A stretch of 14,223 bases of DNA, taken from a virus. Below are positions 1 to 14,223 of this stretch, piece after piece; the first letter of the stretch is position 1; each line of letters starts with the position of its first letter. Under the pieces are notes generated by a model. The model saw only the letters and a list, made by a program, of their open reading frames with translations. It searched no databases and was not told the DNA's origin. The stretch is from UHGV virus genome UHGV-0138819; one strand, given 5' to 3'. A program made the position numbers and the translations under genes.

Positions 1-90
1 ACGGAACACATCGTTCACCAGGGGGATGAGCTAAAACGTGAAGAAGATCTGGATGTCGTTCTGAAGGTGCTGGATTCATATATCAAATAA
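1..90 (+). CDS. rcnR: 3' end of rcnR (Ni/Co-responsive repressor, CsoR/RcnR family), partial
   Basis: Frame 1 reads TEHIVHQGDELKREEDLDVVLKVLDSYIK then TAA at 88-90, which matches my recollection of the E. coli RcnR C-terminus. rcnR lies directly upstream of thiM in E. coli K-12. Start codon is outside the window. Confidence 0.8.
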   Translation, partial: TEHIVHQGDELKREEDLDVVLKVLDSYIK

Positions 91-187
91 TTTATTAACG
101 CTATTGTAAAACTGCCGTTTTTCCTCGTTTACAACGGGTGCGCTGGACATTACCATCCTCCTCTGCGATTTATCATCGCAACCAAAC

Positions 188-258
188 GACTCGGGGTGCC
201 CTTCTGCGTGAAGGCTGAGAAATACCCGTATCACCTGATCTGGATAATGCCAGCGTAG
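188..258 (+). repeat. attL: native 5' portion of the thiM TPP riboswitch aptamer; left copy of the 71-bp imperfect direct repeat
   Basis: 188-258 equals 13557-13627 except at 206, 207 and 232. The left copy carries the bases I recall for the canonical E. coli thi-box (CUUCUGCGUGAAGG, GUAUCACC). Homology ends abruptly after 258. Confidence 0.8.
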
Positions 259-319
259 TCTTGGCGATTATCCAAGATATAAATCAAAGACTTGCACGGT
301 TTTTTCTCTTCATTTTGTT

Positions 320-1702
320 ATGTTGTCACTCAGAGAGACAAACAAAATGGCACACACACCGATCAATCACACCATCATCCGTAACGGGATCTACTACGTC
401 AGCTTTCGCCTGTCGGGTCATAAATATTTCCGTCGGTCGTTAGAGACAGATAGCCACAGCCACGCGCAACTCTTGATGTCATTTGCATCTCCAGCCATTC
501 CATTAGTCAAACGTGGAACCATTCACCCGGATCAGTTTGGTCAACGTCTTTCTGATTTCAGCAACCGCTTAAAGCAACAGAATGAACACTGGCTGGTTCA
601 ACAATTTCTCAGTGATGAACGGCGCAATCTTCAGCCGATAGTTGTTCAGGAATACCGGGAGACTGTTACACCTTCAGAAGATGAGGAAGAACAAACTGAA
701 GCACAGTCAAAGGATGTGTTAACACTGGCTGGCGCTTGGAATATGTACAAAAAGGAGAAAGCCCAAAACTGGACGAAGGCAATTTCACAGGCCAATGAGC
801 GCTTTATGGAAGTCATGTTCATTGTCCTCGGTGCATCAACAGACGTAACGACGATAACCAAGCAGGACATCAAGCAGGTGATGGAAGTTGTTGAAAACTT
901 ACCAAAGCGTGTTGTACAGCCTTATCGGTCGATGACGGTTCAGCAACTGATCGAGTGTGATGATGTGCCACCTGAAGATTTGGTTGGCGCTGAGTCTATC
1001 CACAAGCATTTGAAGATTTACAAATCGCTCTTCAAAACCTTCCTGACTGATAATAAAGATATTCTGGAGAAGTCTCCGACAGATGGAGTAGTCGCCGCAC
1101 CGTCAAAAGCGAGGTTTGGTGCATACAGTGCGGCAGAAATGAGAAAGTTTGTGGGGTGGGCGCTCAAGCAGCCTGATGGCTGGCAGAAATGGATCACCTT
1201 GTTGTTGGCGTATACGGGAGCCAGAAGAGGGGAGATCGCCAAGCTGGAGAAATCACAGATCAAATTTGATGAAGATAGCCAGCGGCACTATCTCCTGATA
1301 GCGGAAGGAGGGCAGGGGAAAACCGAGAATGCTACAAGGCAGGTGGCTATCCATCCCAAACTGATCGAGTGGGGTTTTCTTGATTTTGTAAACCGCCAAT
1401 GGAAAGAGAAAATCTTCTCGCCTGTGTCAGGTAAGAACATGCCAAAAATCGGCAAAGTCTTGGCTGATGTCCGTGATCAGCTTGGTATTCCGTACCTTGA
1501 TGATTATGGGCAGCGGCGATTAGTGCATAGTTTCCGGCATACCATGATTTCAACCTGTTTAGCTGGTTGGGTTGGGAACTTAGCGCACTTGCAACAGGTG
1601 GTTGGGCACGAGAAAAGCGGGTCAGGGATCACTCGGCGCTATCTTCATACGTTCCCGCTTTCCACTGTTTGTTATGTGATTGATGGCTTGGGTTGGTTGT
1701 AG
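320..1702 (+). CDS. int: Tyrosine site-specific integrase
   Basis: 460-aa ORF. C-terminal catalytic motifs are visible: TGARRGE (Arg), HSFRHT (His-x-x-Arg), VGHE, RRYLH (Tyr nucleophile). Alternative start at ATG 347 with a purine-rich AGAGAG upstream. Confidence 0.85.
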   Translation: MLSLRETNKMAHTPINHTIIRNGIYYVSFRLSGHKYFRRSLETDSHSHAQLLMSFASPAIPLVKRGTIHPDQFGQRLSDFSNRLKQQNEHWLVQQFLSDERRNLQPIVVQEYRETVTPSEDEEEQTEAQSKDVLTLAGAWNMYKKEKAQNWTKAISQANERFMEVMFIVLGASTDVTTITKQDIKQVMEVVENLPKRVVQPYRSMTVQQLIECDDVPPEDLVGAESIHKHLKIYKSLFKTFLTDNKDILEKSPTDGVVAAPSKARFGAYSAAEMRKFVGWALKQPDGWQKWITLLLAYTGARRGEIAKLEKSQIKFDEDSQRHYLLIAEGGQGKTENATRQVAIHPKLIEWGFLDFVNRQWKEKIFSPVSGKNMPKIGKVLADVRDQLGIPYLDDYGQRRLVHSFRHTMISTCLAGWVGNLAHLQQVVGHEKSGSGITRRYLHTFPLSTVCYVIDGLGWL

Positions 1703-1755
1703 AAGCAGAGTGATGGTTAAGTGTGAAGTGTATCAAAAAATCAGTAAGATTCGTC

Positions 1756-1785
1756 TTGAAAGTACATTTTGGATAACCATATAAA
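1756..1785 (+). promoter_or_regulatory. Candidate sigma70 promoter for the cargo genes (TTGAAA, 18-bp spacer, TATAAA)
   Basis: -35 TTGAAA at 1756-1761 and -10 TATAAA at 1780-1785, about 35 bp upstream of the ATG at 1820. Sequence-only prediction. Confidence 0.3.
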
Positions 1786-1819
1786 GCTTAAGTTAATTCC
1801 AACCAGATGAGGATGAGTA

Positions 1820-2077
1820 ATGGCAAGATGTACAGATCAGCACCGCTATTGGGATTTTTTCGAACACTTACCCGACGACCAAGGTGGTATTGGCAGACAT
1901 AAATGTTGCGGTTGTGCTTACGAAAAAGGTTATCAAGCAGGATTAATACGATCCGAAATTTTGAACATTGATCTTGATTCCTTACATGAAAGCCAAGCAG
2001 GCACTGTCCGTCATAAGAGTCCACATGCAGCCTATGCTCAAGGATATTTAGATGGTATTACAGCATCTTATCGGTAA
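1820..2077 (+). CDS. Hypothetical small Cys/His-rich protein (85 aa)
   Basis: ORF with AGGA 6 nt upstream of the ATG. Contains HKCCGC and two AYxxGY repeats. No family recognised. Confidence 0.45.
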   Translation: MARCTDQHRYWDFFEHLPDDQGGIGRHKCCGCAYEKGYQAGLIRSEILNIDLDSLHESQAGTVRHKSPHAAYAQGYLDGITASYR

Positions 2078-2109
2078 TAGCCGCCTAAAAGACAGGAGAT
2101 ACGCTATTT

Positions 2110-2541
2110 ATGTCTGGAATGTTAGCAAGCACAGCGGCCGCTGTAGGAATAATTGATAAAGCTGTAGGAATTGCAAAGAAACTTGCTGATGATGGCGGTG
2201 AACTCGATAAGGCGACGCTTAAACTTGAGCTTGCAAACCTCATGACAGAGCTTGCCAGTGTTAAAATGGAAGTTATCACCACCCAGGCGCTACTTTTTGA
2301 AGCGGAACAGAAGAACAAGCAACTTGAAAACCAATTGAAAGATAAGGAATCATTTGTTTTCAATGCCCCTCTTTATTGGAAAAATGGTGACCAAGTTCCG
2401 TTTTGCCCAAAATGTTATGAGGGTGAAGATAAGAAAGTTCATTTACGCTTAATTGTTCACAATGGTACACCGCAACTAGGACTTCCTCCTGAAAACAAAT
2501 GGGCGTGTATGCATTGTCGTTTTTCGCACTCGAACATTTAG
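2110..2541 (+). CDS. Hypothetical protein, N-terminal coiled coil plus C-terminal Cys4 zinc-ribbon-like motif (143 aa)
   Basis: AGGAGA 10 nt upstream of the ATG. C-terminus has CPKC ...(~30 aa)... CMHC. Heptad-like N-terminal segment. Confidence 0.55.
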   Translation: MSGMLASTAAAVGIIDKAVGIAKKLADDGGELDKATLKLELANLMTELASVKMEVITTQALLFEAEQKNKQLENQLKDKESFVFNAPLYWKNGDQVPFCPKCYEGEDKKVHLRLIVHNGTPQLGLPPENKWACMHCRFSHSNI

Positions 2542-2549
2542 TAAATCAA

Positions 2550-2759
2550 TCATTTTTCGTTTTCAGAAGAGTTAAACGTCTTAGAATAGGGGCAGGATTG
2601 AGAGCGAGTCATCAGGGTAAACAGGTAAACGCTGTTTTCGTAAGTGCAAAGCCTCTTCCCGCCCTGCAACTCCTGTTCGTCGGGGTTGCTCATGGTGATT
2701 TTGCTTGCCGCAGCATTAAAAGCCAGCAACATACCGCAAATCAACAGAATACCTCTCAT
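2550..2759 (-). CDS. Hypothetical small secreted protein (69 aa) with N-terminal signal peptide
   Basis: Strong SD (AAGGGGGAGA) just upstream of the ATG on the minus strand. N-terminus MRGILLICGMLLAFNAAAS looks like a signal peptide. Convergent with the 2110-2541 gene. Confidence 0.5.
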   Translation of the reverse strand: MRGILLICGMLLAFNAAASKITMSNPDEQELQGGKRLCTYENSVYLFTLMTRSQSCPYSKTFNSSENEK

Positions 2760-2831
2760 ATCTCCCCCTTGAATGAACTGCCCTCTTCAATGCTAAATTG
2801 CATCCATCGTTCAACGATTATAGTAACAAAG

Positions 2832-2872
2832 TTGATCAATTTTACCGATCGATTTCGTAATTTCGATCGATT
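2832..2872. promoter_or_regulatory. Three GATC sites and two copies of CGATCGATT in the divergent intergenic region
   Basis: GATC at 2834-2837, 2847-2850 and 2865-2868. CGATCGATT at 2846-2854 and 2864-2872. Lies between the minus-strand gene start (2759) and the plus-strand gene start (~2928). Confidence 0.35.
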
Positions 2873-2927
2873 AAAATAATTAAAAATGTTAAGGCACATG
2901 TCGATGGTGTACTTAATCTATTCATCT

Positions 2928-3692
2928 ATGGAGGCTGTTTTGAAAAAGATTCTTGCATTACCTCTTATGTTCTTTTCCTTCTCGTCCTTCTCTGAAGGCG
3001 TTTCGTCTACAGATGTACAACCATACCCTGAGTACCTGGCGGCCTATGTAAAAACGTTGATTGCTGCTGGATGTGAAGAAACATTGAAAGGCGGTTCTGA
3101 GGACGTATTGATCAAACGGGCAACGGAGGGAATGAAGAAGGGCACGACGGGTTACGATAATGTACACAATGCTATCGTGTTGGGGGCTGGTTTCGGTAAT
3201 GGACTGAAGGAAAAAGGAAAACTTATCACAAAAGAAAAAATCGCGATTGATAGTTGTGGTGGTGCAGCGGCCTATACCATGATGCAAAAAGAATTTATAA
3301 AAACGGTCGTTGCTAGTATGACTAATCCGGAACAATCGCAGGTTGCCGATAGTAAACCCAAAGTGCCAGCTTCTGATGATGCAATTTACCGTACAAAAGC
3401 ACTAGCTCTGGCTGAACTTTATAAAGCTAACGAGGTTGCAGCCGATGACAAAATTGGTGGTCGTAAGGTGGAAGTAACCGGAACTGTACAGGACATAACA
3501 AAAAATTTCACGGATGATGTAGTTCTTAAACTTGAAAGCGGTAATCGCTTCATGCCAGTCAGTCTGAGTATGTCTGATTCAGAAAAGGCGAAAGCGTCGA
3601 AATTGGAAAAGGGCCAGAAGATCACCGTGACTTGCGAAAAGATGCAGTTTTTCATCGGTGCACCGTCTGGCGGAAACTGCACCTTTAACTAA
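2928..3692 (+). CDS. Hypothetical secreted protein (~255 aa) with signal peptide and a possible OB-fold-like C-terminal domain
   Basis: Long ORF ending TAA 3690-3692. N-terminus MEAVLKKILALPLMFFSFSSFSEG looks like a signal peptide. Start ambiguous: ATG 2886, 2898, 2928, or TTG 2940 preceded by GGAGG at 2930-2934. The OB-fold resemblance is my guess. Confidence 0.6.
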   Translation: MEAVLKKILALPLMFFSFSSFSEGVSSTDVQPYPEYLAAYVKTLIAAGCEETLKGGSEDVLIKRATEGMKKGTTGYDNVHNAIVLGAGFGNGLKEKGKLITKEKIAIDSCGGAAAYTMMQKEFIKTVVASMTNPEQSQVADSKPKVPASDDAIYRTKALALAELYKANEVAADDKIGGRKVEVTGTVQDITKNFTDDVVLKLESGNRFMPVSLSMSDSEKAKASKLEKGQKITVTCEKMQFFIGAPSGGNCTFN

Positions 3693-3706
3693 TCTGTCAT
3701 ACGGTC

Positions 3707-3727
3707 TGCCGGGTAAAATTCCCGGCA
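3707..3727 (+). other. Hairpin just downstream of the cargo CDS (7-bp stem TGCCGGG/CCCGGCA, 7-nt loop), no U-tract
   Basis: Inverted repeat seen directly. Not followed by a T-run, so terminator function is uncertain. Confidence 0.3.
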
Positions 3728-4986
3728 ACTCATCTACCCCACCTCATGGATGTCCCTGCTATTTGACGATCCAGCTTACATGCTCTTGCTGAAAATATCT
3801 TACGGCTCTCTGGGCCAGGTGCCTGACGTGACAGACGATCCCTCAATAATTTCTTATCTTCTTGCTGAAATATCGCAGAGCCGACAGGCCCAGTAACGTA
3901 TTTCACCACTTCATCCCGTAGAGCATCACAGCAGGGAAAACTTGCCGCAATAGGGCATTCTACTGTTCGTTTTCTGGTCTATTTAACATAATGGTTCTTA
4001 TAAGTACTTGACTGGAATGGTCAGGTATTACTTTTCGGAACGTTGACGCGAAGCTGGGTACACAACAGCGATTTCACCAACAGAAGGAAAGCATTCAGGA
4101 GGATTCGAGGTGAGTTCTCTTGTTCAAGGATTTTGGATGAGTTTGCCTGGTCACCACACAATTTCAGGTTTCAGACCTTTGAGGCTGCCAGTGTGTCAAA
4201 CGCCATAAAAGCACTTTTTTCTGTTTACCAGCAGACACAAAGCCACTACACCGACGTTACCACAACGGGCTGAAGGTCTGCCATCACCTGGTGATATTCA
4301 CGAGCCTGACCGCCACTGTTTCGTACCATTTCCCAAAACAATGTAAACAGCCAACCCACCAATCCCTTCTACGCTCCACCAGAAGCGCTACAGTGCGTTA
4401 TCCCCCCAGATGTAAACTGACGTACCGATAATCCACGACATCCCACAGCGCGATACAGGAACCACCAGAGGACATCTGTTTTAGTTTTAATGTGTCTTTT
4501 TTATTTTTTGTAAAAAGATGGTTCAGAAAGTGGGTTGTGTTTAGCACCCATTCAATTGGCGGATTCGCCTAGGCCGCGCCATTACTGGCTTCGCTGCATG
4601 CACCACACCATAACGCCCATAGGTACAAACTTGTGATTTGTACGTTTAGTGACCACTTTAGCATGATTAACTACGGATTATAGGCTATTTGAGGTGTATT
4701 TAATCTACTTTGTTCGCAGGATAGCCAATGATAAAGATCATCCACCAAATTTTCACAGAAAACTAGTATAGGGTTGCCAATCTTCAGCCAGCGCGGAGAA
4801 TGGTCGGTATTTTCAGATGAAAGCGGGGGAGGGAGATGATCAATTCTCGGAGCGGATCAGGTGCCTGGACCGCCTCAGGTGTTGCCGTCGATTGTGCCAT
4901 TGAAGCATGACGCGGACATATCAAACCAGAAGTTTTCATCGGTACGTTGGTCGCTTGGATGACTTGGAAAATTCTCACCCGGTGAT

Positions 4987-5075
4987 ACCTGCACGATTTT
5001 CGTGTACCCACCCCCTCGATTTTCGAGCACCTACCTGCACGATTTTCGAGTAGGGGGTAGTCGATTTTCGAGCAC
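4987..5075. repeat. Iteron-like array: four CGATTTTCG-centred repeats at 22-23 bp spacing, followed by an AT-rich tract; candidate replication origin or protein-binding array
   Basis: CGATTTTCG at 4994, 5017, 5040 and 5062. ACCTGCACGATTTTCG is exact at 4987-5002 and 5033-5048. CGATTTTCGAGCAC is exact at 5017-5030 and 5062-5075. AATAATAATAAATAACAAT follows at 5076-5094. Confidence 0.55.
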
Positions 5076-5649
5076 AATAATAATAAATAACAATCTCCAT
5101 AAAAGAACTGATAAGAAAAGTACCTCCAGGTCGAGAGCACGGAATGACGGTTGGTCATTCTGTTAGTTTTAATAGTGATGCTTCTGCATCGCTCCGCTCT
5201 GCAATGGCTGGTCAGCCACTTCAGATATGTTTGTGGTAAGAAGCTCACCTTTGCTGACGTGAAACAGCCGCGCCATCTCGTGACCTTCTAACCCTCGTTA
5301 ACACATCGCTACGCTCTGTGACTCGGGTAACCCGACAGGCTACGCCAGAGAGCTACGCTCTCACTCTGTGTGGAAGCTGCGAACTTGTTCGCCATATGTG
5401 GATCGGAGCACGGCGGAGAGGACTGCTTTGCATCTGTCCGGTTCACTCCGGGGCGGCGCGGGTTGTCTAACTGACTTCCTCAGCGCCTCTCTACGGCGTT
5501 TAAATGGTGTGGGTAACACGATGGTACTGCTATAACGACGAGTCCCCGCAGAACGCGTCACAGAACGATCTAGCACTATTGACAAAGATTTTTTAAACTT
5601 GTAATGTTATGGTGATTATTATGCATTATAAAATGCTACATGATAATGA

Positions 5650-5678
5650 TTGCTATTTACAAACAAATCTGATACAAT
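5650..5678 (+). promoter_or_regulatory. Candidate sigma70 promoter for the 5824-10406 operon (TTGCTA, 17-bp spacer, TACAAT)
   Basis: -35 TTGCTA at 5650-5655 and -10 TACAAT at 5673-5678 in an AT-rich region about 145 bp upstream of the first operon ATG. Confidence 0.4.
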
Positions 5679-5823
5679 AGATTTTAGTAGGGTAATGATT
5701 TACCTACGAATCCTCGAATAATTCTGCCGTCATCACGACATTCCTTGTCAACCTCACGGCAATACAAAATGGGTTACAAATAGAACCTCCGCGAATAATT
5801 CTTTTAACAGAACGGAGAACCCA

Positions 5824-6270
5824 ATGAATAAACCAAAATCCCAACGTCTCGACCTGACCACTATGACAGGCGAGCAGATCGCTGATCTCATCCTGAACGG
5901 CAAATACACCAAATCAGCTTTGTGGGCCTTCATTAGTAGAAACGGCGGGGCAGACGCTGTACATGCTCGACTTCCTCAGATCGCCGTCTGCCTGCAAATC
6001 CTGAAGCAGGCGCGGAAGAAAGCGAAGCAGGCACGAGTGGTTAAGACGGTGCTGAAGCCTCTGAGCAATAAATATGCTGAGGGTAATTCCTTAACGCAAA
6101 TCCTGAATCCTGTGTTACAGGGCTACCGCGAGCTATATAGAGAAAAACTGAATCTGGACCTGACACCAGAACAGGTGATCTTGCTCTTGATCGCCACTGA
6201 TGGTGTGGAACGTCTGGAATCCTACGGTTACACCTGTGCGGGTGACTTCCCGACCGCAACCGCAGTCTAA
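5824..6270 (+). CDS. Hypothetical protein (148 aa), first gene of the rightward operon
   Basis: GGAGA 8 nt upstream of the ATG. No family recognised. Confidence 0.6.
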   Translation: MNKPKSQRLDLTTMTGEQIADLILNGKYTKSALWAFISRNGGADAVHARLPQIAVCLQILKQARKKAKQARVVKTVLKPLSNKYAEGNSLTQILNPVLQGYRELYREKLNLDLTPEQVILLLIATDGVERLESYGYTCAGDFPTATAV

Positions 6271-6357
6271 CAACACTGAACAAAACCTGAGCCGGTTCGC
6301 CTTTGGGCGACCACTGGCGGGAGGTCTTTTGTACCTAAAACGAGGAGGACAACTTGA

Positions 6358-6561
6358 ATGAACATCAAATTTCAACAGCACGTTTATCAGGCTCTACTAG
6401 CTGAGGCCAAAAGGCAGGACAAGCCCCTGGCACGGCTCTGTAATGAAATCTTGGAGACTGCCGCGAACATTTTCGACAACACACCAGACATCAAACCAGC
6501 ATTAGCCAGCAAGGCGACACTTTACGGAGAACAGAATGAGCAAACAGAACCGGGACAGTAA
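6358..6561 (+). CDS. Small putative ribbon-helix-helix (Arc/MetJ/CopG-like) DNA-binding protein (67 aa)
   Basis: AGGAGGA upstream of the ATG. N-terminal strand-like MNIKFQQ followed by two predicted helices (QALLAEAKRQ, PLARLCNEILETA). RHH assignment is by pattern only. Confidence 0.55.
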   Translation: MNIKFQQHVYQALLAEAKRQDKPLARLCNEILETAANIFDNTPDIKPALASKATLYGEQNEQTEPGQ

Positions 6562-7282
6562 GGATTTTGTAAAACTTGAATACAGCATTCTCGACCTTAC
6601 CGAGTACAACGGCCTGACCATTAATGGCAACATGAAAATTTTGCTATCTCTGGTTTACAGCTATGACAAAACAGGCAGAACTTATTACGAGTCTGTTGGC
6701 ATGATTGGTAAACGTTGCGGCTGCAAGCCCGAAGCCGTTCGTAATTTCAGGAACAAGCTTCGTGAAGCGGGAATGATCACTTTTGAGGAAGAGCAGGGGA
6801 GAACACACAAAATTTCTCCGGTCGAACTCGATCCATCGTTGATGGTTTTTCTTGACGATCATAATTCCACGCAGGTGAGTAATAGAAAAGTGGAAACCGA
6901 GGAGAGCGGTAAGAATGAGCAGAAACGTGATGTGGAATCTTTCGTGGTGGAACCTGCCGCGCCTGTTGCTGGAAAACCAGACGGCCTACCTGTTGTGGAT
7001 ATTCCTGTCGATGCTGATGTACCTGCCAATGATGATGCGGTGAACGCTTCTGATAGGTATACCGATGAACAATTAGGCACCAAGCTGAGGCGATGGCGCA
7101 ATTGGGGACTGGATGAAGAAGCAAAAGCGTTTTGTCTCTCTCATGGTATCAGCAGCGATGAGGACAGCATGAATCTGTTTATTCAAAATTATCATGTACC
7201 CGCACCGGAGTCAGTAGAACAACAGGTTAACGCCCCAGCAGATGAGCTGCCGCTTGATTATGATGACTCGATCCCTTTCTGA
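6536..7282 (+). CDS. Hypothetical protein (248 aa) with a putative winged-helix DNA-binding segment and acidic C-terminal region; candidate replication initiator or regulator
   Basis: GGAGA 5 nt upstream of the ATG. Overlaps the previous ORF by 26 nt. Segment YESVGMIGKRCGCKPEAVRNFRNKLREAGMI resembles wH/HTH domains. C-terminal half is D/E-rich. Confidence 0.55.
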   Translation: MSKQNRDSKDFVKLEYSILDLTEYNGLTINGNMKILLSLVYSYDKTGRTYYESVGMIGKRCGCKPEAVRNFRNKLREAGMITFEEEQGRTHKISPVELDPSLMVFLDDHNSTQVSNRKVETEESGKNEQKRDVESFVVEPAAPVAGKPDGLPVVDIPVDADVPANDDAVNASDRYTDEQLGTKLRRWRNWGLDEEAKAFCLSHGISSDEDSMNLFIQNYHVPAPESVEQQVNAPADELPLDYDDSIPF

Positions 7283-7296
7283 TACTGGAGGAATAA

Positions 7297-7818
7297 TTGT
7301 GTGATGTTGCCAACAGCCTGACGGCTGAAACCCTTACGGTGCGAAGCACTTTACCAGAGGTAAACAAATCCGGTGCTGACGCCCCTGATTTGTCCCGTTT
7401 TTACAAGGCCCGCTCTCGTGATACCTCGTTGATCGAGACTGCTAAAAAAATGCTCGTTCACGGTTACACCCCAGGCAAAACGGCGCTGCTCCTACGCTTG
7501 CCGTATGACCTGGTAAAAGGCCTTTACGATAACTCGTGGAATCCTCGCTGTCGCAAGATAAGTAATACCAGTCAGTACGCTACTAAGCGAATGGCCCGAA
7601 TGTACTACGAATCCGGCGCAATGCTGGCAAAAATCTGTGCTGACCTTCAACTGCCTCTATTCACTGTGGTAACGCTGCTCAAGCGTGAAGGAATCACTGA
7701 AAAAGAAATGGCATCTCGAATGCCTGTTAGTGATGATCCGTTGTTCATTGAGTACCGGAAGACTATTTCACGCAAGCAGGCAGCGCCCCAACGCCGATCA
7801 CCACGACTGCATTATTAA
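7297..7818 (+). CDS. Hypothetical protein (173 aa), possible tandem HTH-like segments
   Basis: TTG start 5 nt after GGAGG (7287-7291). No family recognised. Confidence 0.5.
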   Translation: MCDVANSLTAETLTVRSTLPEVNKSGADAPDLSRFYKARSRDTSLIETAKKMLVHGYTPGKTALLLRLPYDLVKGLYDNSWNPRCRKISNTSQYATKRMARMYYESGAMLAKICADLQLPLFTVVTLLKREGITEKEMASRMPVSDDPLFIEYRKTISRKQAAPQRRSPRLHY

Positions 7819-7836
7819 TACCCCAGCCGGGGAAAC

Positions 7837-8265
7837 TTGACCCTATTTGAATATTTATCCTTTCTGCCGTTAGCGGTAGCTGTTCTCCAATGGCTTCGTG
7901 ACGGCCTGGACCTCTACAGGAAACATAACAATATGAATAACATTGAAGCAATCCGCGCCAGTATCCGGGAAGCAATGACCGCAGGAACAGACGAACCGGA
8001 AGATCTGAACAAATCCGCTGAAGAAGCATTGGCGGAGGCGGTGCAGAGTTACCTGTCCGCTTCGACTGCAACAGCCAGCGAGCCAGCCCCAAAAAGTGGT
8101 AAAACCATCAAGGAAAAAGGGATCGCTCTGTGCCACCAAGCCCAAGGTTATAGCGCTAATCTGCGTCCGGTAAGTCTCATGATGAAGGCAAGTCTTGATG
8201 AGCTAACACCTGAACAACGCGCCGCGCTTGAGCGTCTGGGTTACGATATCAATCAGGGGGTGTGA
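7837..8265 (+). CDS. Hypothetical protein (142 aa from TTG 7837, or 111 aa from ATG 7933)
   Basis: TTG 7837 preceded by GGGGA. In-frame ATG at 7933 preceded by AGGAAA. Its stop TGA (8263-8265) overlaps the next ATG (8265-8267). Confidence 0.5.
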   Translation: MTLFEYLSFLPLAVAVLQWLRDGLDLYRKHNNMNNIEAIRASIREAMTAGTDEPEDLNKSAEEALAEAVQSYLSASTATASEPAPKSGKTIKEKGIALCHQAQGYSANLRPVSLMMKASLDELTPEQRAALERLGYDINQGV

Positions 8266-10406
8266 TGTCTGGCACAAATAAGATTGTTACCAGCACCGTT
8301 AATGAAATCTCGTGGATCACAGACGATGCCTCATATCAAAAAGCCAAAAAGAAGATTATCTCGCTTAAGGCTGCTCATGAGAAACCAGCTAAAGCGCTTG
8401 AGAAGGCCCAGAAGCGGACCGTCCAGAGTGAAGGCAAAGCAGCACTAGCCGCAGCGAAAGCCCAGACAGCGAAGCTACGCCAGGCTGAACAATTGTCAAA
8501 ACAGCAACAGAAACAAGCTCAGATACAAGCCAAAATGGAACGGGATGCAGTCTCCCACGCTAATAAAATGACCTCATTACAGGCGCGTCAGTTATCCCAG
8601 CAGGAACAGGCCGCACGGCAGAATGCCAGACTAGCAGCGATATCTGACAAGGTGAGACAGGCGAGTCGCTCCCGTGCAATGACCTACAATCCCAACATGC
8701 CTGGAGTTCACTCCGATCCATCTCTGGTGGCACGTCAAAATGCAGCGATGAACCGTGGTCACGGCGCTGTTGCTGCTGACATCGCAGCCACCAAAAAGGC
8801 GATGGCCTTGGAGGAGAAGCGTCAGCGTGAGAAAGAGGCAGGCCTTAAGCGCGAGGTGACTTATTACAACAGTTTGCGCCGTAGCGCTCTGACTCTGGCA
8901 AACGTGAACGGCGCTGACGTTGCAACCCGGTACAAAGCCATCAGTGCAGCAAAAGAGGCACTTAAAGCCCAGAAAGAAGAGCGCTATACGGTTGAAGAGA
9001 CCCGCTTCGAAATGGCTCGTATCACCACCGAATTACGCAAGCAGGCTCGTCTGCAACAGCGTATGACCCGTGAGCAGAAAGCCGCAGGTGTTCGTGCTGG
9101 TCGTGTACGCACAGAAAGCCGTGGTGGTAGAGCTGGTCTTGCAGCTGCTGGTGTTATTGGTGGTGCGTCGTTAGTGGGTAGTATGGGCGTTTCTCGTGTC
9201 GGTCAGACCCTCCAGGGAAGCCTTGAGCGCTCTCGCGATGTGAAAAAACTCCAGCAGTACGGGATCAGCAACCTTGAGTTCGCTGCACTTCAGGATCTCT
9301 CGATGAGCCGTGTTGGTTACTCACTGAGTGCTGACAAGCTGGCTGACCTCAACAAGGACACAACCGAAAAGGCCGGGGAATTGTTAAACACCGGCTCTTT
9401 CAAACGTAACAAGAAAACTGGACAGGTGAATTTCAGCGGCGGTGGCGAGTTCGCAGATATCATCAACAATGTGCTGACCTCCACCAACGGTAACCAGAAG
9501 GTAGCACAGAAGGTGATCGGAGAACTGCAAAAGCTGGATTTTCCGACCTTCATCACTTACCTGAAACAGTTGCAGAAAACTTTCAAATGGACGGACAACC
9601 AGACCCGGCACCTGGCTGAGGCTGTGAATGATGGTTCGGTCTTCCTCGAAGTGTTCAATGATGAGGGGCAGGGACTTATCCAGCGTATGCATCAACTCTC
9701 TTCTGAAGGATGGACCCTATCTGATGCGCAGCAAGCCAACCTCGATAAACTGGCGGCGTTAGGTGCTGAGTACAACCGAGTGCAAACCAGCCTTGCAGAT
9801 CATTTCTCAGCCTCGTTTGTTGAAGGCCTGGGGCAGTACGCTGCCAATACTGAAACTCTACGTCAGAAGATGACTGGACTGATCCCAATTTCCGATGCCC
9901 TCGGCGTTGCCCTTGGTGAGCTAACCACCAACATTCTCTCCTTCTCTGGTCGAGTCGGTGAAGAACTTAAGAAAGGCGCGACATTGCCGGATGCGGTGTA
10001 TACGAGCGTGGTAGATGAATCTGCAAACGGTGCTGCCGATTGGATTAAGGAAAAGACAGGCTTTGATCCACGTAGCATCGGTCAGACGCTTAAGCAGATT
10101 TACCCGTGGCTGGATAGTTCAGCACCGAGCAATATTGGCTCAGGCACGGCGTATAACGATCCAGCGCTAGCGTTGAATGTTCCTAGCCTGAACTATCTGA
10201 CACCCCAGCAACCGACGTTTACGGTTCCGACAATTGACAGCATGACGCTGCGACAGCCGATTCCTGTCAGTGTTACCGGGCAAGCGAACATTAATCAGCA
10301 GATGGATGTGTTTGTCCATGACGATAAGATCGCAGGGCTGGTTGATACCAAGATAAGGGAGAACAACCACGCGCAGAATAACCTCATCCTTGGGATTGCA
10401 GACTAA
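8265..10406 (+). CDS. Large hypothetical protein (~713 aa): Ala/Lys/Gln-rich coiled-coil N-terminal ~300 aa, Gly-rich hydrophobic segment, unrecognised C-terminal region
   Basis: Uninterrupted 2.1 kb ORF with start overlapping the upstream stop (TGATG). Hydrophobic GLAAAGVIGGASLVGSMGV mid-protein. No Walker A, no relaxase HxH motif, no primase zinc-finger pattern seen. Confidence 0.7.
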   Translation: MSGTNKIVTSTVNEISWITDDASYQKAKKKIISLKAAHEKPAKALEKAQKRTVQSEGKAALAAAKAQTAKLRQAEQLSKQQQKQAQIQAKMERDAVSHANKMTSLQARQLSQQEQAARQNARLAAISDKVRQASRSRAMTYNPNMPGVHSDPSLVARQNAAMNRGHGAVAADIAATKKAMALEEKRQREKEAGLKREVTYYNSLRRSALTLANVNGADVATRYKAISAAKEALKAQKEERYTVEETRFEMARITTELRKQARLQQRMTREQKAAGVRAGRVRTESRGGRAGLAAAGVIGGASLVGSMGVSRVGQTLQGSLERSRDVKKLQQYGISNLEFAALQDLSMSRVGYSLSADKLADLNKDTTEKAGELLNTGSFKRNKKTGQVNFSGGGEFADIINNVLTSTNGNQKVAQKVIGELQKLDFPTFITYLKQLQKTFKWTDNQTRHLAEAVNDGSVFLEVFNDEGQGLIQRMHQLSSEGWTLSDAQQANLDKLAALGAEYNRVQTSLADHFSASFVEGLGQYAANTETLRQKMTGLIPISDALGVALGELTTNILSFSGRVGEELKKGATLPDAVYTSVVDESANGAADWIKEKTGFDPRSIGQTLKQIYPWLDSSAPSNIGSGTAYNDPALALNVPSLNYLTPQQPTFTVPTIDSMTLRQPIPVSVTGQANINQQMDVFVHDDKIAGLVDTKIRENNHAQNNLILGIAD

Positions 10407-10440
10407 AATCATCGTTCCGTCGAAAATGGCGCAGCAAATT

Positions 10441-10460
10441 GGCCCACACGAGAGAGGGCC
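10441..10460 (+). terminator. Weak terminator-like hairpin after the 714-aa gene
   Basis: GGCCC (10441-10445) pairs with GGGCC (10456-10460) around a 10-nt loop, followed by a T-rich stretch (GTTATTGTTTTTGTTGTTG). Confidence 0.25.
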
Positions 10461-10490
10461 GTTGAATTCGCCATGTTATTGTTTTTGTTG

Positions 10491-10520
10491 TTGCAAATGA
10501 TAATCATTCGTGTTAAAATA
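10491..10520 (+). promoter_or_regulatory. Fur-box-like palindrome (AATGAT-A-ATCATT) overlapping a candidate sigma70 promoter (TTGCAA, 18-bp spacer, TAAAAT)
   Basis: Perfect 6-1-6 inverted repeat at 10495-10507 inside 10493-10511, about 14/19 match to the Fur consensus GATAATGATAATCATTATC as I recall it. -35 TTGCAA 10491-10496, -10 TAAAAT 10515-10520. Confidence 0.35.
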
Positions 10521-10926
10521 ATATACAAGGTGAATTACAACAGCCAAATGTTTTCCCTTCTCCTTAGGAATCAAAGTGCGCTTTTCCCAGAGCGCCTTTT
10601 CTCATACAGCCAATATTCGCACCCTCTCACGGTAAGGTTAGGCCATTGCCGCTGGCTGTATCAGAAAAGATTTTCTCCGACCTTGGATCGGGGATTTGCC
10701 AAAGCCTTTCATCCTCGGAAGGCCGTCTTGCCAGACGAAAACTGGCATTGAGTGCGGCAGCGAAGATATGAGGTCTCCCGCTGCTGTGCTCCCTCATTCC
10801 TGAAGCGTGACCCGCCGATCATGCTTTCCAAATCTCTCCATCAGAAAATACCATCGTGAAGCTATTAGCAACGCATGTTGCTAACCCGTAAACGGGTGAA
10901 TTTCATCATCTCCGATGATCTACCAA

Positions 10927-10962
10927 CCGGGGCAGGCGTTTTCCTGCCTCCGGCTCTTTTTC
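10927..10962 (+). terminator. Terminator-like hairpin (CCGGGGCAGG / CCTGCC-T-CCGG) followed by CTCTTTTTCT
   Basis: About 10-bp GC-rich stem with one bulge, T-rich tract a few nt downstream. Confidence 0.4.
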
Positions 10963-10984
10963 TGTTGGGAATACAAATAAAAGA

Positions 10985-11010
10985 ATGCCGTCCGATGGAC
11001 GGTATTTTTT
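10985..11010. terminator. Rho-independent terminator, probably bidirectional
   Basis: Stem ATGCCGTCC / GGACGGTAT with loop GAT, then TTTTT on the plus strand. The plus-strand AAATAAAAG just upstream gives a U-rich tract on the minus strand. Confidence 0.6.
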
Positions 11011-11049
11011 CAACACAACCCGGCATATTCGCCGGATTATAAAAATTGC

Positions 11050-11412
11050 ATGGAGATACAACAAAATATGGCATTCGAACATGAAAGCAAAACCCCACAG
11101 GATGTATTGGTTTATACCGATAGCCCGATCTTTCATAAGCGCACCGTGATCTTTGATCTGGCTGCTGATGTGACTTGTGGTGATGTGATTAACCCGACCA
11201 CTGGCGCGGCATACGTTGCAGCCGATGCTGATAACTGTGCTGTAGCTCTGCAAAATCAAATCGCTGGTGATGCCCGTAGCCTGGTCATTTCAGACCGTGG
11301 CTGTGTGTTCAATCCATCTGGTCTGGTTGTAGCGGCTGCTGCAAAAGATGCTGCTTACGCTGCCCTTGTTAAGCAAGGCAACCGCATTGCTGACGCAAAC
11401 ACTGCAATCTAA
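11050..11412 (+). CDS. Putative phage head decoration-like protein (120 aa, or 114 aa from ATG 11068)
   Basis: Small Ala/Gly/Val/Asp-rich protein immediately upstream of a ~340-aa capsid-like ORF, the lambda D-E arrangement. Product call is inference from size, composition and gene order. GGAGA at 11052-11056 fits the 11068 start. Confidence 0.5.
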   Translation: MEIQQNMAFEHESKTPQDVLVYTDSPIFHKRTVIFDLAADVTCGDVINPTTGAAYVAADADNCAVALQNQIAGDARSLVISDRGCVFNPSGLVVAAAAKDAAYAALVKQGNRIADANTAI

Positions 11413-11430
11413 TCAAGGAGTGATAACAAT

Positions 11431-12447
11431 ATGAAATTAAGTGATTTTACTAACCTTTCCGGTCAGTTTGTGAAGCCAAGCGGCGAGGGGTTCCTTCTGT
11501 CCAGCCTGGGGATCTTTACCAGCCGTCCAAGTGATACGCAAATCATCGCGCTCGACACACTGGAAGATGTGCAGCGTGAAGTGACCAAATCTGTTGCCCG
11601 TTATGGTTCTGAAATGTCCGGTCTAAACTTCCCTAAAGCGGCTAACGTGACTGTTCAGGCTCCACTGCATGTCTACAGCTCAACCATCACCAGCCAGGAT
11701 TGGCAGGGGAAACGTCAGCCGGGAACAAATCGCCAGATGACCGCTGAAGATGTAGTTGCTAATCATACCCTGAAGCACTACCTGCAAACCCGCCGTGATG
11801 TTGAATATGCCATGGCGCAGAGCCTGCTTCACAATACTGTAGAGGCGACACACCTTCGTGAAGGTCCTGATCTGAACTGGCAAACCTTCTGGGGTATTAA
11901 CCAGCCGTCTGCTGTGGTGAAAACTGGCATCAGTGCCAACGTTATTACTGAGATGCAGAACGCTGTCACGCTGCTGAAGAAAAATCTGGGTGGCTGGTCT
12001 TCCAGCATCAAGCAGGTTTATCTGCTAGCGAGTCCGAGTCTTTTCACCGCCATTCAAGGCAACCCAACCGCATATCAGGCGGCTCTGTTTGGTGCTACGT
12101 CCCGTGACATCATTTTCCCTGACACTTTGGGCGCATATGATCGATACAACATCGGGCGCGTAACTGTAGTTCAGGTTGACGATCCGCTATACGGCATTGC
12201 AGATGGTGAAGGCTACATGCTGGCGACGTTCTCCAATGTTGTTGAAGGCGACCTTTCACCTTATATGACTTACCAGACTCCGGCGAGCCGTCATGCTGAC
12301 GTTGCTAATGGTCCGGTTTATCCGTCTTACCATTACGTTCTGCGTGATAAGTTCATGAATTATGAGGTGGTCAGCGAGCTATCACAAATTCAGATCCCAA
12401 TGCGTCCAGACTTCGTTTTGAAAATTACGATGGATGACGCGGCGTAA
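11431..12447 (+). CDS. Putative major capsid protein (338 aa), possibly lambda gpE-like
   Basis: AGGAG upstream of the ATG. Length and position after the small decoration-like ORF fit a major capsid protein. Family assignment not verified. Confidence 0.6.
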   Translation: MKLSDFTNLSGQFVKPSGEGFLLSSLGIFTSRPSDTQIIALDTLEDVQREVTKSVARYGSEMSGLNFPKAANVTVQAPLHVYSSTITSQDWQGKRQPGTNRQMTAEDVVANHTLKHYLQTRRDVEYAMAQSLLHNTVEATHLREGPDLNWQTFWGINQPSAVVKTGISANVITEMQNAVTLLKKNLGGWSSSIKQVYLLASPSLFTAIQGNPTAYQAALFGATSRDIIFPDTLGAYDRYNIGRVTVVQVDDPLYGIADGEGYMLATFSNVVEGDLSPYMTYQTPASRHADVANGPVYPSYHYVLRDKFMNYEVVSELSQIQIPMRPDFVLKITMDDAA

Positions 12448-12509
12448 GACAGCGTATTTTGGGGGCGCATTGCCCCCGCTGCAGGCGAGCCAAAGGAAAG
12501 GAGATACAT

Positions 12510-12722
12510 ATGAAATTAGCTTTGATCGGTACTGGCAACATGCCGCTGATGCAGTGGATTCTAGATGGCAAGGGCGATGATGCGATTATCAACATGTCAG
12601 CGTTAGCACGCAGGCTTGAGTGTAGTCGTTCCAGCCTACTTGACCGCATCCATACGCATGGATTCGACAGCGCTATTAGGTACTACCTCAACGAACAGCG
12701 ACAACGAAAACTGAAAACATGA
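12510..12722 (+). CDS. Small HTH-like protein (70 aa); candidate DNA-binding, excisionase or packaging accessory
   Basis: Strong SD (AAGGAAAGGAGA) 6 nt before ATG 12510. The ORF track extends it to 12459, but the SD supports 12510. INMSALARRLECSRSSLLDRI resembles a helix-turn-helix. Confidence 0.55.
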   Translation: MKLALIGTGNMPLMQWILDGKGDDAIINMSALARRLECSRSSLLDRIHTHGFDSAIRYYLNEQRQRKLKT

Positions 12723-12723
12723 G

Positions 12724-12749
12724 AGCCGGGTTAATCCCGGCTTTTTTTA
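12724..12749. terminator. Strong rho-independent terminator shared by convergent genes
   Basis: AGCCGGG-TTAAT-CCCGGCT followed by 7 T (12743-12749), 1 nt after the plus-strand stop. The hairpin overlaps the last codons and stop of the minus-strand CDS. Confidence 0.8.
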
Positions 12750-13366
12750 TGTACTTTGCTGAAGTCAAAAAGATTGTCAAATTTAATGATATCTAATCCA
12801 GAGATAGCGTGATTAACATCTTTCATCATTGCGCCATGTTCATCATAAGCGTTACGTATTGCCATGAATTCTTCTGGTGTTATCTGTGCTTTAAGCAAAG
12901 CCTGCATGATGAGAGTCATCAGTTTTGAGATGGCTATTTGCGTATTACCAGAAGATCGAAGAAGGGCGTTGAATGGCTCCCAGGAAACCTTTTTAATCAG
13001 AACATTATAGTGACTTAACTTGATGAAAGAGCTACCAATGCGAAAGGTATTTTCCGTCATATCTTTCAAGGATTCTTGAATATGATAATAGCTTTCTTCG
13101 TCGGCTTTTTGTCCTGATTTCGCCAGTGTGTCGAGAAAAGTCATAATGCGGTTTAAGTCAAAGCGCATACGATTGTAACGGCTTCTGGTGCTATCAATTT
13201 CTTCTTTAAGAGCGATTGCTGAATCAATTGCCCGCTCCATTTTTCTCGTCTTCACAATCTCCTGAAGTTTAACCCCTCCGAAGATGACGCCGCCAACCAC
13301 ACTCAACGCTGTTACAGCATTCGAAGCGATAGAGATAATGTTATCCCATGCTTGTAAATCCATCAT
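12731..13366 (-). CDS. Hypothetical membrane-anchored protein (211 aa) with one N-terminal transmembrane helix; candidate exclusion or defence gene
   Basis: AAGAGG SD before the ATG on the minus strand. N-terminus IISIASNAVTALSVVGGVIFGGV looks like a TM helix. Appears AT-rich by eye. Convergent with the capsid operon, adjacent to attR. Confidence 0.65.
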   Translation of the reverse strand: MMDLQAWDNIISIASNAVTALSVVGGVIFGGVKLQEIVKTRKMERAIDSAIALKEEIDSTRSRYNRMRFDLNRIMTFLDTLAKSGQKADEESYYHIQESLKDMTENTFRIGSSFIKLSHYNVLIKKVSWEPFNALLRSSGNTQIAISKLMTLIMQALLKAQITPEEFMAIRNAYDEHGAMMKDVNHAISGLDIIKFDNLFDFSKVHKKSRD

Positions 13367-13405
13367 AACCTCTTTTTTTAATGCGGTAGTTGACGACTTA
13401 AGAGC

Positions 13406-13435
13406 ATTCTACATGGCACACATTGTGTCACTCAA
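13406..13435 (-). promoter_or_regulatory. Candidate sigma70 promoter for the 12731-13366 gene (minus strand: TTGAGT, 18-bp spacer, TAGAAT)
   Basis: Reverse complement of 13406-13411 is TAGAAT and of 13430-13435 is TTGAGT, about 35 nt upstream of the minus-strand ATG. Confidence 0.3.
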
Positions 13436-13556
13436 CCTGTCACACATAGACCAAAAGGGCCGCTTTTACCGTTTACAAGACTTCCCGCTGGCATTACTAT
13501 CCTGATCAGGGATTAATGAGGAGCATTAATCGCAAGCTTTTGATTTTATAGTACAT

Positions 13557-13627
13557 GACTCGGGGTGCCCTTCTTTGTGAAGGCTGAGAAATACCCGTAT
13601 TACCTGATCTGGATAATGCCAGCGTAG
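13557..13627 (+). repeat. attR: element-derived riboswitch-like 5' arm plus shared core; right copy of the 71-bp direct repeat
   Basis: Differs from 188-258 at three positions (TT for GC at 13575-13576, T for C at 13601). Canonical host sequence resumes after 13627 (GGAAGTCACGG...). Confidence 0.8.
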
Positions 13628-13681
13628 GGAAGTCACGGACCACCAGGTCATTGCTTCTTCACGTTATGGCAGGAGCAAACT
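13557..13681 (+). promoter_or_regulatory. TPP (thi-box) riboswitch in the thiM 5' leader, hybrid of element-derived 5' aptamer half and host 3' half plus expression platform
   Basis: GGGGTGCCCTTCT..GTGAAGGCTGAGAAATACCCGTAT.ACCTGATCTGGATAATGCCAGCGTAGGGAAGTCACGGACCACCAGGTCATTGCTTCTTCACGTTATGGCAGGAGCAAACTATG matches the E. coli thiM riboswitch as I recall it, apart from three substitutions in the 5' half. Confidence 0.85.
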
Positions 13682-14223
13682 ATGCAAGTCGACCTGCTGA
13701 GTTCAGCGCAATCTGCGCACGCGTTACACCTTTTTCACCAACATTCCCCTCTTGTGCACTGCATGACCAACGATGTGGTGCAAACTTTTACTGCCAATAC
13801 CTTGCTGGCGCTCGGCGCATCGCCAGCGATGGTTATCGAAACCGAAGAGGCCAGTCAGTTTGCGGCTATCGCCAGTGCCTTGTTGATTAACGTTGGCACA
13901 CTGACGCAGCCACGCGCACAGGCGATGCGTGCTGCCGTTGAGCAAGCAAAAAGCTCTCAAACACCCTGGACGCTTGATCCAGTAGCGGTTGGTGCGCTCG
14001 ATTATCGCCGCCATTTTTGTCATGAATTTTTATCTTTTAAACCGGCAGCGATACGTGGTAATGCTTCGGAAATCATGGCATTAGCTGGCGTTGCTAATGG
14101 CGGACGGGGAGTGGATACCACTGACGCCGCAGCTAACGCGATACCCGCTGCACAAACACTGGCACGGGAAACTGGCGCAATCGTCGTGGTCACTGGCGAG
14201 GTGGATTATGTTACCGATGGACA
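13682..14223 (+). CDS. thiM: Hydroxyethylthiazole kinase, 5' part (continues beyond the window)
   Basis: Translation from ATG 13682 reads [60 protein letters not shown]..., matching E. coli ThiM as I recall it. Preceded by the TPP riboswitch. Absent from the ORF track only because there is no in-window stop. Confidence 0.9.

Follow-up and report, generated by a model that had tools for sequence, protein, structure and literature searches.

Integrases that target tRNA or tmRNA genes have an attP site that carries the displaced end of the gene. For the element SXT, Hochhut and Waldor are said to have found in 1999 that the incoming DNA supplies both a new promoter and a new 5' end. Integration into tRNA and tmRNA genes was treated by Williams in 2002 (reference 26 in PMC10121019). 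Islands in the interval between the Escherichia coli genes rcnR and thiM have been reported at the level of their location, namely the McrX island beside thiM in E. coli B (PMC5487053) and the 'rcnR-thiM' entries in the supplement of Hochhauser 2023 (PMC10121019). Apart from such location-level mentions, our full-text literature search found no paper that links thiM or a thiamine pyrophosphate (TPP) riboswitch with a natural att site. Here we analysed the DNA of the UHGV virus genome UHGV-0138819 (14,223 nucleotides, hereafter the window), in which a satellite-like element with a tyrosine integrase lies within the TPP riboswitch of thiM. We consider it likely that the insertion is site-specific and restores its target: the P4-P5 hairpin of the thiM aptamer would serve as attB, and the attP site of the element would carry a replacement cassette that rebuilds the riboswitch.

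A repeat search of the window revealed a single family of 71-nt direct repeats, with copies at 188-258 and 13557-13627 that are 96% identical and spaced by 13,369 nt. The repeat comprises the 5' two-thirds of the thiM TPP aptamer. Its copies flank a 13.4-kb segment bearing the integrase gene (int), with rcnR on one side and thiM on the other. Three mismatches (13575, 13576 and 13601) separate the copies and leave an identical block of 26 nt (233-258 and 13602-13627); this is the crossover core, with the mismatch positions, that an initial annotation of the window had put forward. The two junctions and int are composed as follows:

1-90, plus strand: 3' end of host rcnR, stop codon at 88-90 (RefSeq annotation of the identical locus in strain TC24)
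188-258, plus strand: host allele of the aptamer segment at attL, from the 5' strand of P1 to the 3' strand of P4 (repeat search; 100% identical to K-12 MG1655)
233-258, no strand assigned: 26-nt core at attL, the same in both copies, which covers aptamer P4-P5 and sets the widest possible interval for strand exchange (repeat comparison)
347-1702, plus strand: tyrosine integrase of 451 aa (PF00589 at 29.2 bits versus a cutoff of 27.1; annotated as tyrosine-type recombinase)
13551-13647, plus strand: reconstituted chimeric TPP aptamer, RF00059, with P1 formed by 13556-13560 and 13631-13635 (73.6 bits; riboswitch annotation by PGAP)
13557-13601, plus strand: element-derived aptamer part, namely P1 5' strand, P2, P3/L3, J3-2, P2' and J2-4, with the variants 13575, 13576 and 13601
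13602-13627, plus strand: identical core at attR, namely P4 5' strand, P5/L5 and most of the P4 3' strand (repeat comparison)
13628-13681, plus strand: host P1 3' strand, expression platform and Shine-Dalgarno sequence AGGAG at 13671-13675 (identical to the empty site)
13682-14223, plus strand: 5' part of thiM, hydroxyethylthiazole kinase (PF02110, E = 7.5e-74)

In 4728 of 5426 complete E. coli genomes, the reconstructed empty site runs on without a break, and all 4728 lack the element. The repeat marks an insertion boundary, as had been proposed. While the attL 71-mer is 100% identical to K-12 MG1655, no uninterrupted locus with all three attR variants was found among the 4728 E. coli genomes (best match 99.2%, in one genome). 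Since none of them carries the three bases, we rejected native polymorphism as their source; the TT variant alone is present on the host side in strain A37 (attL of locus L007). The host allele therefore stands at attL, and 13557-13601 derives from the element, which makes the riboswitch in front of thiM a chimera, just as the initial annotation had read it. This allele comparison places strand exchange on the right side of 13601. A direct repeat marks each junction, relatives have an empty site and int adjoins one of the junctions, in agreement with lambda-type integration between attP and attB. The exact element is rare (2 genomes); related integrases occur in 178 genomes.

We then asked how the chimera compares with a native riboswitch. 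The Rfam model of the TPP riboswitch (RF00059) matches 13551-13647 with 73.6 bits (gathering score 54.3), versus 71.2 bits for the native E. coli aptamer, so that the covariance-model comparison of hybrid and native leader, as initially suggested, speaks for an intact aptamer. Eight other attR copies from E. coli, Enterobacter, Pantoea, Silvania and Mangrovibacter reached 73.1-77.7 bits. In the chimera, the element U preceding GACUC contributes a fifth P1 pair. Residues were numbered as in the thiM aptamer (n = window position - 13546, anchored on U39GAGAA, A12:U87, A53 and A69), with anchor and contact residues as described in PMC2018614. On this numbering, the substitutions are G29U and C30U (13575/13576) in loop L3, which matches their earlier assignment to the P3 loop region, and C55U (13601) in junction J2-4. 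All residues with ligand or tertiary contacts (C24, U39-A44, U52/A53, A69 and G72; PMC2018614) are unchanged, the J3-2 sequence UGAGA and the L5/P3 contact residues are present, and helices P1-P5 can form.

Among 15 distinct attR or native aptamers, the P1-P5 positions hold standard pairs in 98.6% of the alignment cells, and compensatory double changes account for 11 cells of the three distal P3 pairs (CUUC/GAAG, CAUC/GAUG and CUGU/ACAG). In Pluralibacter, whose host-side thiM aptamer has GNAT and LysR genes upstream, the 5' part of that aptamer is exactly the element allele of the window (UGACUC...CUUUGUG...GUAUUAC); all three substitutions are thus in native use elsewhere. P1 and P4 of the rebuilt aptamer are hybrid helices, each pairing an element strand with a host strand. 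Downstream of the core, 13628-13681 is identical to the empty-site sequence, and the predicted fold of the platform is alike for native and chimeric leaders. Both thiM and thiD are full-length and free of pseudogene marks in the carrier TC24, and their frames are intact in carriers from many genera. The attR chimera thus has the context of a TPP riboswitch, in the 5' leader of a thiamine gene (thiM start at 13682) and with an expression platform. Taken together, the chimeric aptamer looks fully functional, with TPP binding and repression predicted.

The arrangement recurs well beyond the window. In a scan of one genome per species, 24 loci with homologues of the integrase were found in about 15 genera of Enterobacterales (L numbers denote sampled loci). 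In 23 of the 24, the int homologue is preceded by a thiM-type aptamer copy whose end lies about 90 nt away, and every aptamer copy with a host 3' side has a thiM orthologue about 125 nt downstream. Integration inside the aptamer, first claimed for the window, thus has the support of 23 more loci in other genera. Of 42 copies from about 15 genera, 40 have the core ACCTGATCTGGATAATGCCAGCGTAG without any change, and this near-invariance of P4-P5 accounts for the use of many enteric hosts by a single integrase family. The catalytic signature of the integrase, ARRGE (R293/R294), HSFRH (H394-x-x-R397), GHE (H421) and RY (Y432), is invariant in the alignment of homologues. A comparison with the PDB gave no relative at E <= 0.01, and no NCBIfam family scored over its cutoff. 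Two protein searches, with listed matches at >=57% identity, yielded no homologue outside Enterobacterales or at another target among those listed. The homologues form two subfamilies, 71% identical, that differ mainly in the N-terminal 120 residues, and are accompanied by several left-arm types. The cargo of the sampled loci is variable and often includes defence genes (OLD-like nuclease, HamA with helicase, HNH). Judged by these loci, target restoration by aptamer replacement is a trait of this integrase family across enteric bacteria.

Tandem arrays occupy the site in four loci (L016, L021, L025 and L027). Junctions resembling attP, with right arm, aptamer segment, left arm and int in a row, were seen at L025:9721-9930, L016:1-210, L027:9720-9930 and L032:1190-1500; in L032, a right end of the phage-inducible chromosomal island (PICI) type is joined to a left arm and int of the window type. 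Searches of IMG/VR for an excised attP gave no match with the junction pattern, and the core pattern returned only attR ends of PICI type and one tandem junction.

Further signals lie in the arms next to the repeat copies:

128-156, plus strand: promoter-like site of native thiM, TTTACA-17-TACCAT, which remains at attL and faces the element and int (promoter scan)
241-274, no strand assigned: 8-nt dyad TGGATAAT (241-248) and ATTATCCA (267-274), centred on 258|259, the end of homology (inverted-repeat search)
282-294, plus strand: site AATCAAAGACTTG in the left, int-proximal arm, a match to the consensus WATCAANNNNTTR of integration host factor (IHF)
13472-13500, plus strand: element-borne thiM-type promoter-like site TTTACA-17-TACTAT (promoter scan; position homologous to the native promoter)
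13511-13531, plus strand: leader palindrome GATTAATG-N5-CATTAATC (inverted-repeat search, alignment)
13533-13545, minus strand: IHF-consensus site AATCAAAAGCTTG in the right arm, containing TTGATT (consensus match; conserved in 12 of 12 element right arms)

The insertion has displaced the native thiM promoter to attL, where it points into int, and thiM needs a promoter borne by the element; on this point the initial annotation was correct. The promoter scan listed a site near-identical to the native one in the right arm, with a predicted start near 13507. Alignment of all 12 sampled right arms showed homology, starting at the -35 region and extending to P1, to the sequence upstream of host-side thiM in E. 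coli and Pluralibacter. What the element brings is therefore more than the aptamer half and includes a homologue of the thiM promoter and leader. At the homologous position, the hexamers match the consensus at 9/12 bases in 5 arms, at 8/12 (the listing threshold of the script) in 3, and at 7/12, by eye, in the other 4. Host-side thiM aptamers of Pluralibacter, C. koseri, Enterobacter and Winslowiella are likewise preceded by the pattern TTTACA-17-TA(T/C)(C/T)(C/A)T, and two arm subtypes of divergent sequence have kept the 17-nt spacing.

An alternative start site, proposed in the initial annotation, was the stretch 13520-13556 with TTGATT (13540-13545) and TATAGT (13547-13552). Here, TATAGT matches the -10 consensus at 5/6, and a start at G13557 would fall exactly at P1. 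But the two hexamers are 1 nt apart and therefore form no -35/-10 pair, the scan gave no hit, and TATAGT is unconserved, with GATTTAAAT or GTTTTATTT in other right arms. TTGATT in turn belongs to the conserved motif TTGATTTT of this stretch, which is an IHF-consensus match. We therefore regard a thiM start at 13540-13552 as very improbable and TTTACA-17-TACTAT as the better promoter candidate, with an activity that consensus matches and conservation suggest.

Between this candidate and the IHF-consensus site lies the leader palindrome, whose counterpart in the second arm subtype and in the host-side thiM leader of Pluralibacter reads TTAACG...CGTTAA, a symmetric change (homologous positions in L002, L004 and L008). 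The native E. coli leader has a different 5' hairpin, GCGAU...AUCGC, at 165-180. The palindrome could be a conserved 5' stem-loop or else a site to which a protein binds. On the minus strand, a promoter-like TTGAGT-18-TAGAAT (13406-13435) points left to a 211-aa gene (12731-13366), and the 190-nt intergenic region at the right end may hold divergent promoters.

Only two matches to the IHF consensus exist in the whole window. Both are in the att arms, 24 nt to the right and 12 nt to the left of the repeat copies, and this striking placement leads us to predict IHF binding at both. The two halves of the dyad are candidate core-type integrase sites. Because the dyad is centred on the end of homology, exchange probably takes place at the 3' edge of the 26-nt identity block, as with tRNA-targeting integrases.

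The same features fit a reading in which the rebuilt riboswitch is a by-product: the long homology would serve recombination, through binding of integrase and accessory proteins, RecA-mediated exchange or gene conversion, and RNA function would not be selected on the element. The IHF-consensus sites and the dyad lie in and beside the homology. P3 variants of the element often equal the local host P3, as for CCCCATCGCTGATGGG in the two Enterobacter loci L009 (attL) and L016 (attR), which fits exchange between copies, and the tandem arrays offer many recombination partners. Yet core-type sites need about 20-30 bp and not 71 nt plus about 110 nt of diverged promoter and leader. In window-type arms, near-identical homology begins exactly at the P1 5' strand. 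Moreover, the variation is compensatory or confined to loops and junctions, and the promoter hexamers keep their spacing in the two divergent arm subtypes. A mere by-product is in our view rather unlikely, and selection on recombination and restoration of the target are not mutually exclusive.

The left arm raises the question of which gene the right-arm promoter mainly serves. It could read across attP into int in the circular element, with the host thiM promoter taking over after integration and thiM expression being secondary. The int start lies 88 nt past the repeat on the same strand, with the same geometry in 23 loci, and neither a sigma-70-like site nor a terminator was found between the native promoter and int. 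A 9-bp hairpin, CATTTTGTT and AACAAAATG (311-319 / 341-349), encloses the int start codon (347-349), an arrangement also seen in the Klebsiella sp. locus L012. It may exert translational control of int, and suggests post-transcriptional control of a read-through transcript. On the other side, that transcript is a prediction from sequence, and TPP sensing at attL is unlikely given left arms that share no conserved P1 3' strand and attL copies of 53.6-61.3 bits. A promoter chiefly for the element appears unlikely to us; it would be compatible with insertion that restores the riboswitch.

The attL copy itself (182-278) scores 53.6 bits on the TPP model, just under the gathering score, and has non-canonical P1 and P4 pairs, because past 258 the element sequence takes the place of the P1 3' strand and of the last pair of P4. 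Scores of 54.9-61.3 bits were obtained for other left-arm types, and no conserved P1 3' strand is common to the types compared. We therefore discarded a TPP-sensing aptamer at attL controlling int, given these sub-threshold or marginal scores, and keep it only as a reading of low probability. Two attL copies (L012:9840-9915 and L023:9845-9920) carry ACCC>AUCC in the P2 3' strand, a change compatible with a G.U pair.

The same riboswitch is also occupied by other elements. A capsid-forming PICI (cf-PICI; example L042), with genes for HK97 capsid, protease, portal and terminase, sits in the same aptamer (IMG/VR loci L033-L041 and RefSeq). Its 406-aa integrase is unrelated to the window integrase (BLASTP E = 0.12), and its core of 13 nt, GAAATACCCGTAT, lies in J3-2/P2'/J2-4 and not in P4-P5. 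As seen from the junctions (attL ...CCCGTAT|tttctc and attR gtaaGAAATACCCGTAT|CACCTG; L042:830-880 and 15980-16045), the cf-PICI splits the aptamer without rebuilding it, and a riboswitch is annotated at neither junction. Of 5426 E. coli genomes, 76 have an insertion of this type. The supplementary material of Fillol-Salom 2018 gives this core, as AGAAATACCCGTAT, for the att site of the PICI EcCI224 ('frmR-thiM'), with the riboswitch unmentioned (PMC6092414). The O157:H7/O55:H7 group (340 genomes) holds an int-less remnant of 2.3 kb (L043:13731-16003) in which the native promoter and the attL copy are gone and only an element-type right arm precedes the thiM aptamer; no sigma-70-like site was found on the thiM strand there.

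Such loci bear on the possibility that thiMD is mis-regulated in carriers, the leader being silent or transcribed without TPP control, and that the host tolerates this. The splits at the cf-PICI core go unrepaired in 76 genomes, and the deletion of the native promoter and attL copy in 340 genomes shows that the site tolerates rearrangement. Against mis-regulation, the chimera outscores the native aptamer, with no contact residue or helix lost, the expression platform is that of the host without change, and the thiM and thiD frames are intact in many genera. ThiD is needed for de novo thiamine synthesis, and a silent operon should therefore be costly. Mis-regulation thus strikes us as quite improbable.

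For insertion with restoration of the riboswitch, we propose the following course. The tyrosine integrase would target the P4-P5 hairpin of the thiM TPP aptamer as attB and exchange strands within the 26 identical nucleotides. On the left side of the crossover, attP would provide a thiM-type promoter, a leader of about 50 nt with hairpin and IHF-consensus site, and an aptamer part that spans the P1 5' strand through J2-4. At attL, the host promoter and the host 5' aptamer part remain behind, reading into int; at attR, the element cassette is fused to host sequence, namely the 3' end of P4, the 3' strand of P1, the expression platform and thiMD. The outcome is a complete aptamer with hybrid P1 and P4. 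Since regulation would act via the aptamer and the unchanged host platform, thiMD is expected to stay under TPP control while being transcribed from the element promoter. Promoter activity, transcription start, TPP responsiveness and the exact cleavage positions are what we infer from the sequence.

Several observations weigh against this course. The promoter match is only 9/12, and shuffled sequence yields such matches at about the same frequency (4 found, 2.2 expected). Some arm subtypes have a weaker consensus, and the scan gave no sigma-70 site in related arms of the L006 type. Folding by minimum free energy reproduced the ligand-bound aptamer for neither the native nor the chimeric leader and gave a ligand-free alternative fold in both, so that this thermodynamic prediction cannot separate the two; of the folding comparison initially suggested, the Rfam part spoke for an intact aptamer and the free-energy part was uninformative. 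Variation in the element copy could partly have been imported from the host by recombination in the 71-nt homology and not have been selected on the element. Finally, a PICI that does not repair the aptamer persists in 76 genomes, and restoration is therefore not obligatory for the host.

The inserted element itself comprises:

259-13556, no strand assigned: integrated satellite-like element with int, variable genes and the genes below
6536-7282: O/DnaD-like replication initiator (weak hits)
8262-10406: 714-aa coiled-coil protein (weak hits to tape-measure PHROGs)
11050-11412: gpD-like protein
11431-12447: lambda-E-like major capsid protein (PF03864, E = 0.0028; phrog_29)

The capsid and gpD-like proteins gave the only structural-type hits. 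No hits to portal, protease or terminase were obtained among the element proteins, and the element therefore fits no described satellite family. Classification as a cf-PICI, which has its own genes for HK97 capsid, protease, portal, connector and terminase, was rejected on the same grounds; L042 has all of these. Compared with classical Gram-negative PICIs (int, alpA, pri-rep, 10-15 kb, no structural genes), size and int fit, a capsid gene is present, the replication hits are weak and no AlpA was recognised. The major capsid protein (11431-12447) had no tblastn match in 50,697 phage records, and PADLOC assigned no known defence system to the variable genes. Other E. coli genomes have a core module (3977-12748) elsewhere on the chromosome, with about 91% identity. 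Within a 2.1-kb stretch without RefSeq gene (3693-5823), four palindromic copies of CGATTTTCG(A/T)G are spaced by about 23 nt (4987-5075). They look like iterons or operators, and possibly mark an origin of replication.

Repairing and non-repairing elements in one riboswitch amount to a natural experiment on the value of riboswitch control of thiMD. For genome annotation, a 'TPP riboswitch' feature that is duplicated or truncated in the rcnR-thiM interval is the att site of an island, and such islands often carry anti-phage genes. The integrase and its attB could also provide an orthogonal, broadly conserved landing site for engineering. A more speculative idea, to which we give little credence so far, is that riboswitch aptamers form an unrecognised class of att sites, reached convergently by at least two unrelated integrase families, with att arms that in the restoring family act as a swappable regulatory cassette: the thiM-type promoter and leader of the element would drive int in the circular form and thiMD once integrated, and the host promoter with the truncated aptamer would drive int. 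If true, int expression and possibly excision would be coupled to thiamine physiology, and the element would control thiamine salvage and synthesis of its host.

How, then, does this locus compare with the known systems? The McrX and Hochhauser islands share the chromosomal interval and a cargo that often includes anti-phage genes, but their reports make no statement on att site, riboswitch or reconstitution. The PICIs of EcCI224 type share the riboswitch, the rcnR-thiM interval and the satellite-type organization with int beside attL; they differ in an unrelated integrase, in a core of 13-14 nt in J3-2/P2'/J2-4, and in leaving the aptamer split and unrepaired. Like our element, SXT in prfC has a tyrosine integrase, enters a conserved host function at its 5' end and comes to lie upstream of the interrupted gene (PMC2791158, PMC5812530). 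However, prfC is protein-coding and offers no RNA fold or ligand sensing to rebuild, and the integrase families are unrelated.

Closest in logic are the integrases of tRNA and tmRNA genes. They, too, target a highly conserved structured RNA with the dyad symmetry of a hairpin, and a block of identity from the crossover to the end of the unit regenerates an intact copy, from which tandem arrays and a broad host range follow. The initial annotation had called the locus unusual. This holds for the class of target and for the polarity of replacement on the 5' side, but not for the general logic, since an attP that restores its target is well known. What is new is the riboswitch aptamer as target, with a replaced piece that consists of promoter, leader and the 5' two-thirds of a ligand-binding RNA, and with two hybrid helices. 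In contrast to tRNA and tmRNA genes, the target here is a cis-regulatory mRNA leader whose 5' side is replaced, promoter included, and whose P1 and P4 become element-host hybrids. With this polarity, the element must bring a promoter and form hybrid helices with host RNA. The logic of tRNA genes, a hairpin-rich landing pad with the displaced piece on attP, is thereby extended to a metabolite-sensing mRNA leader.

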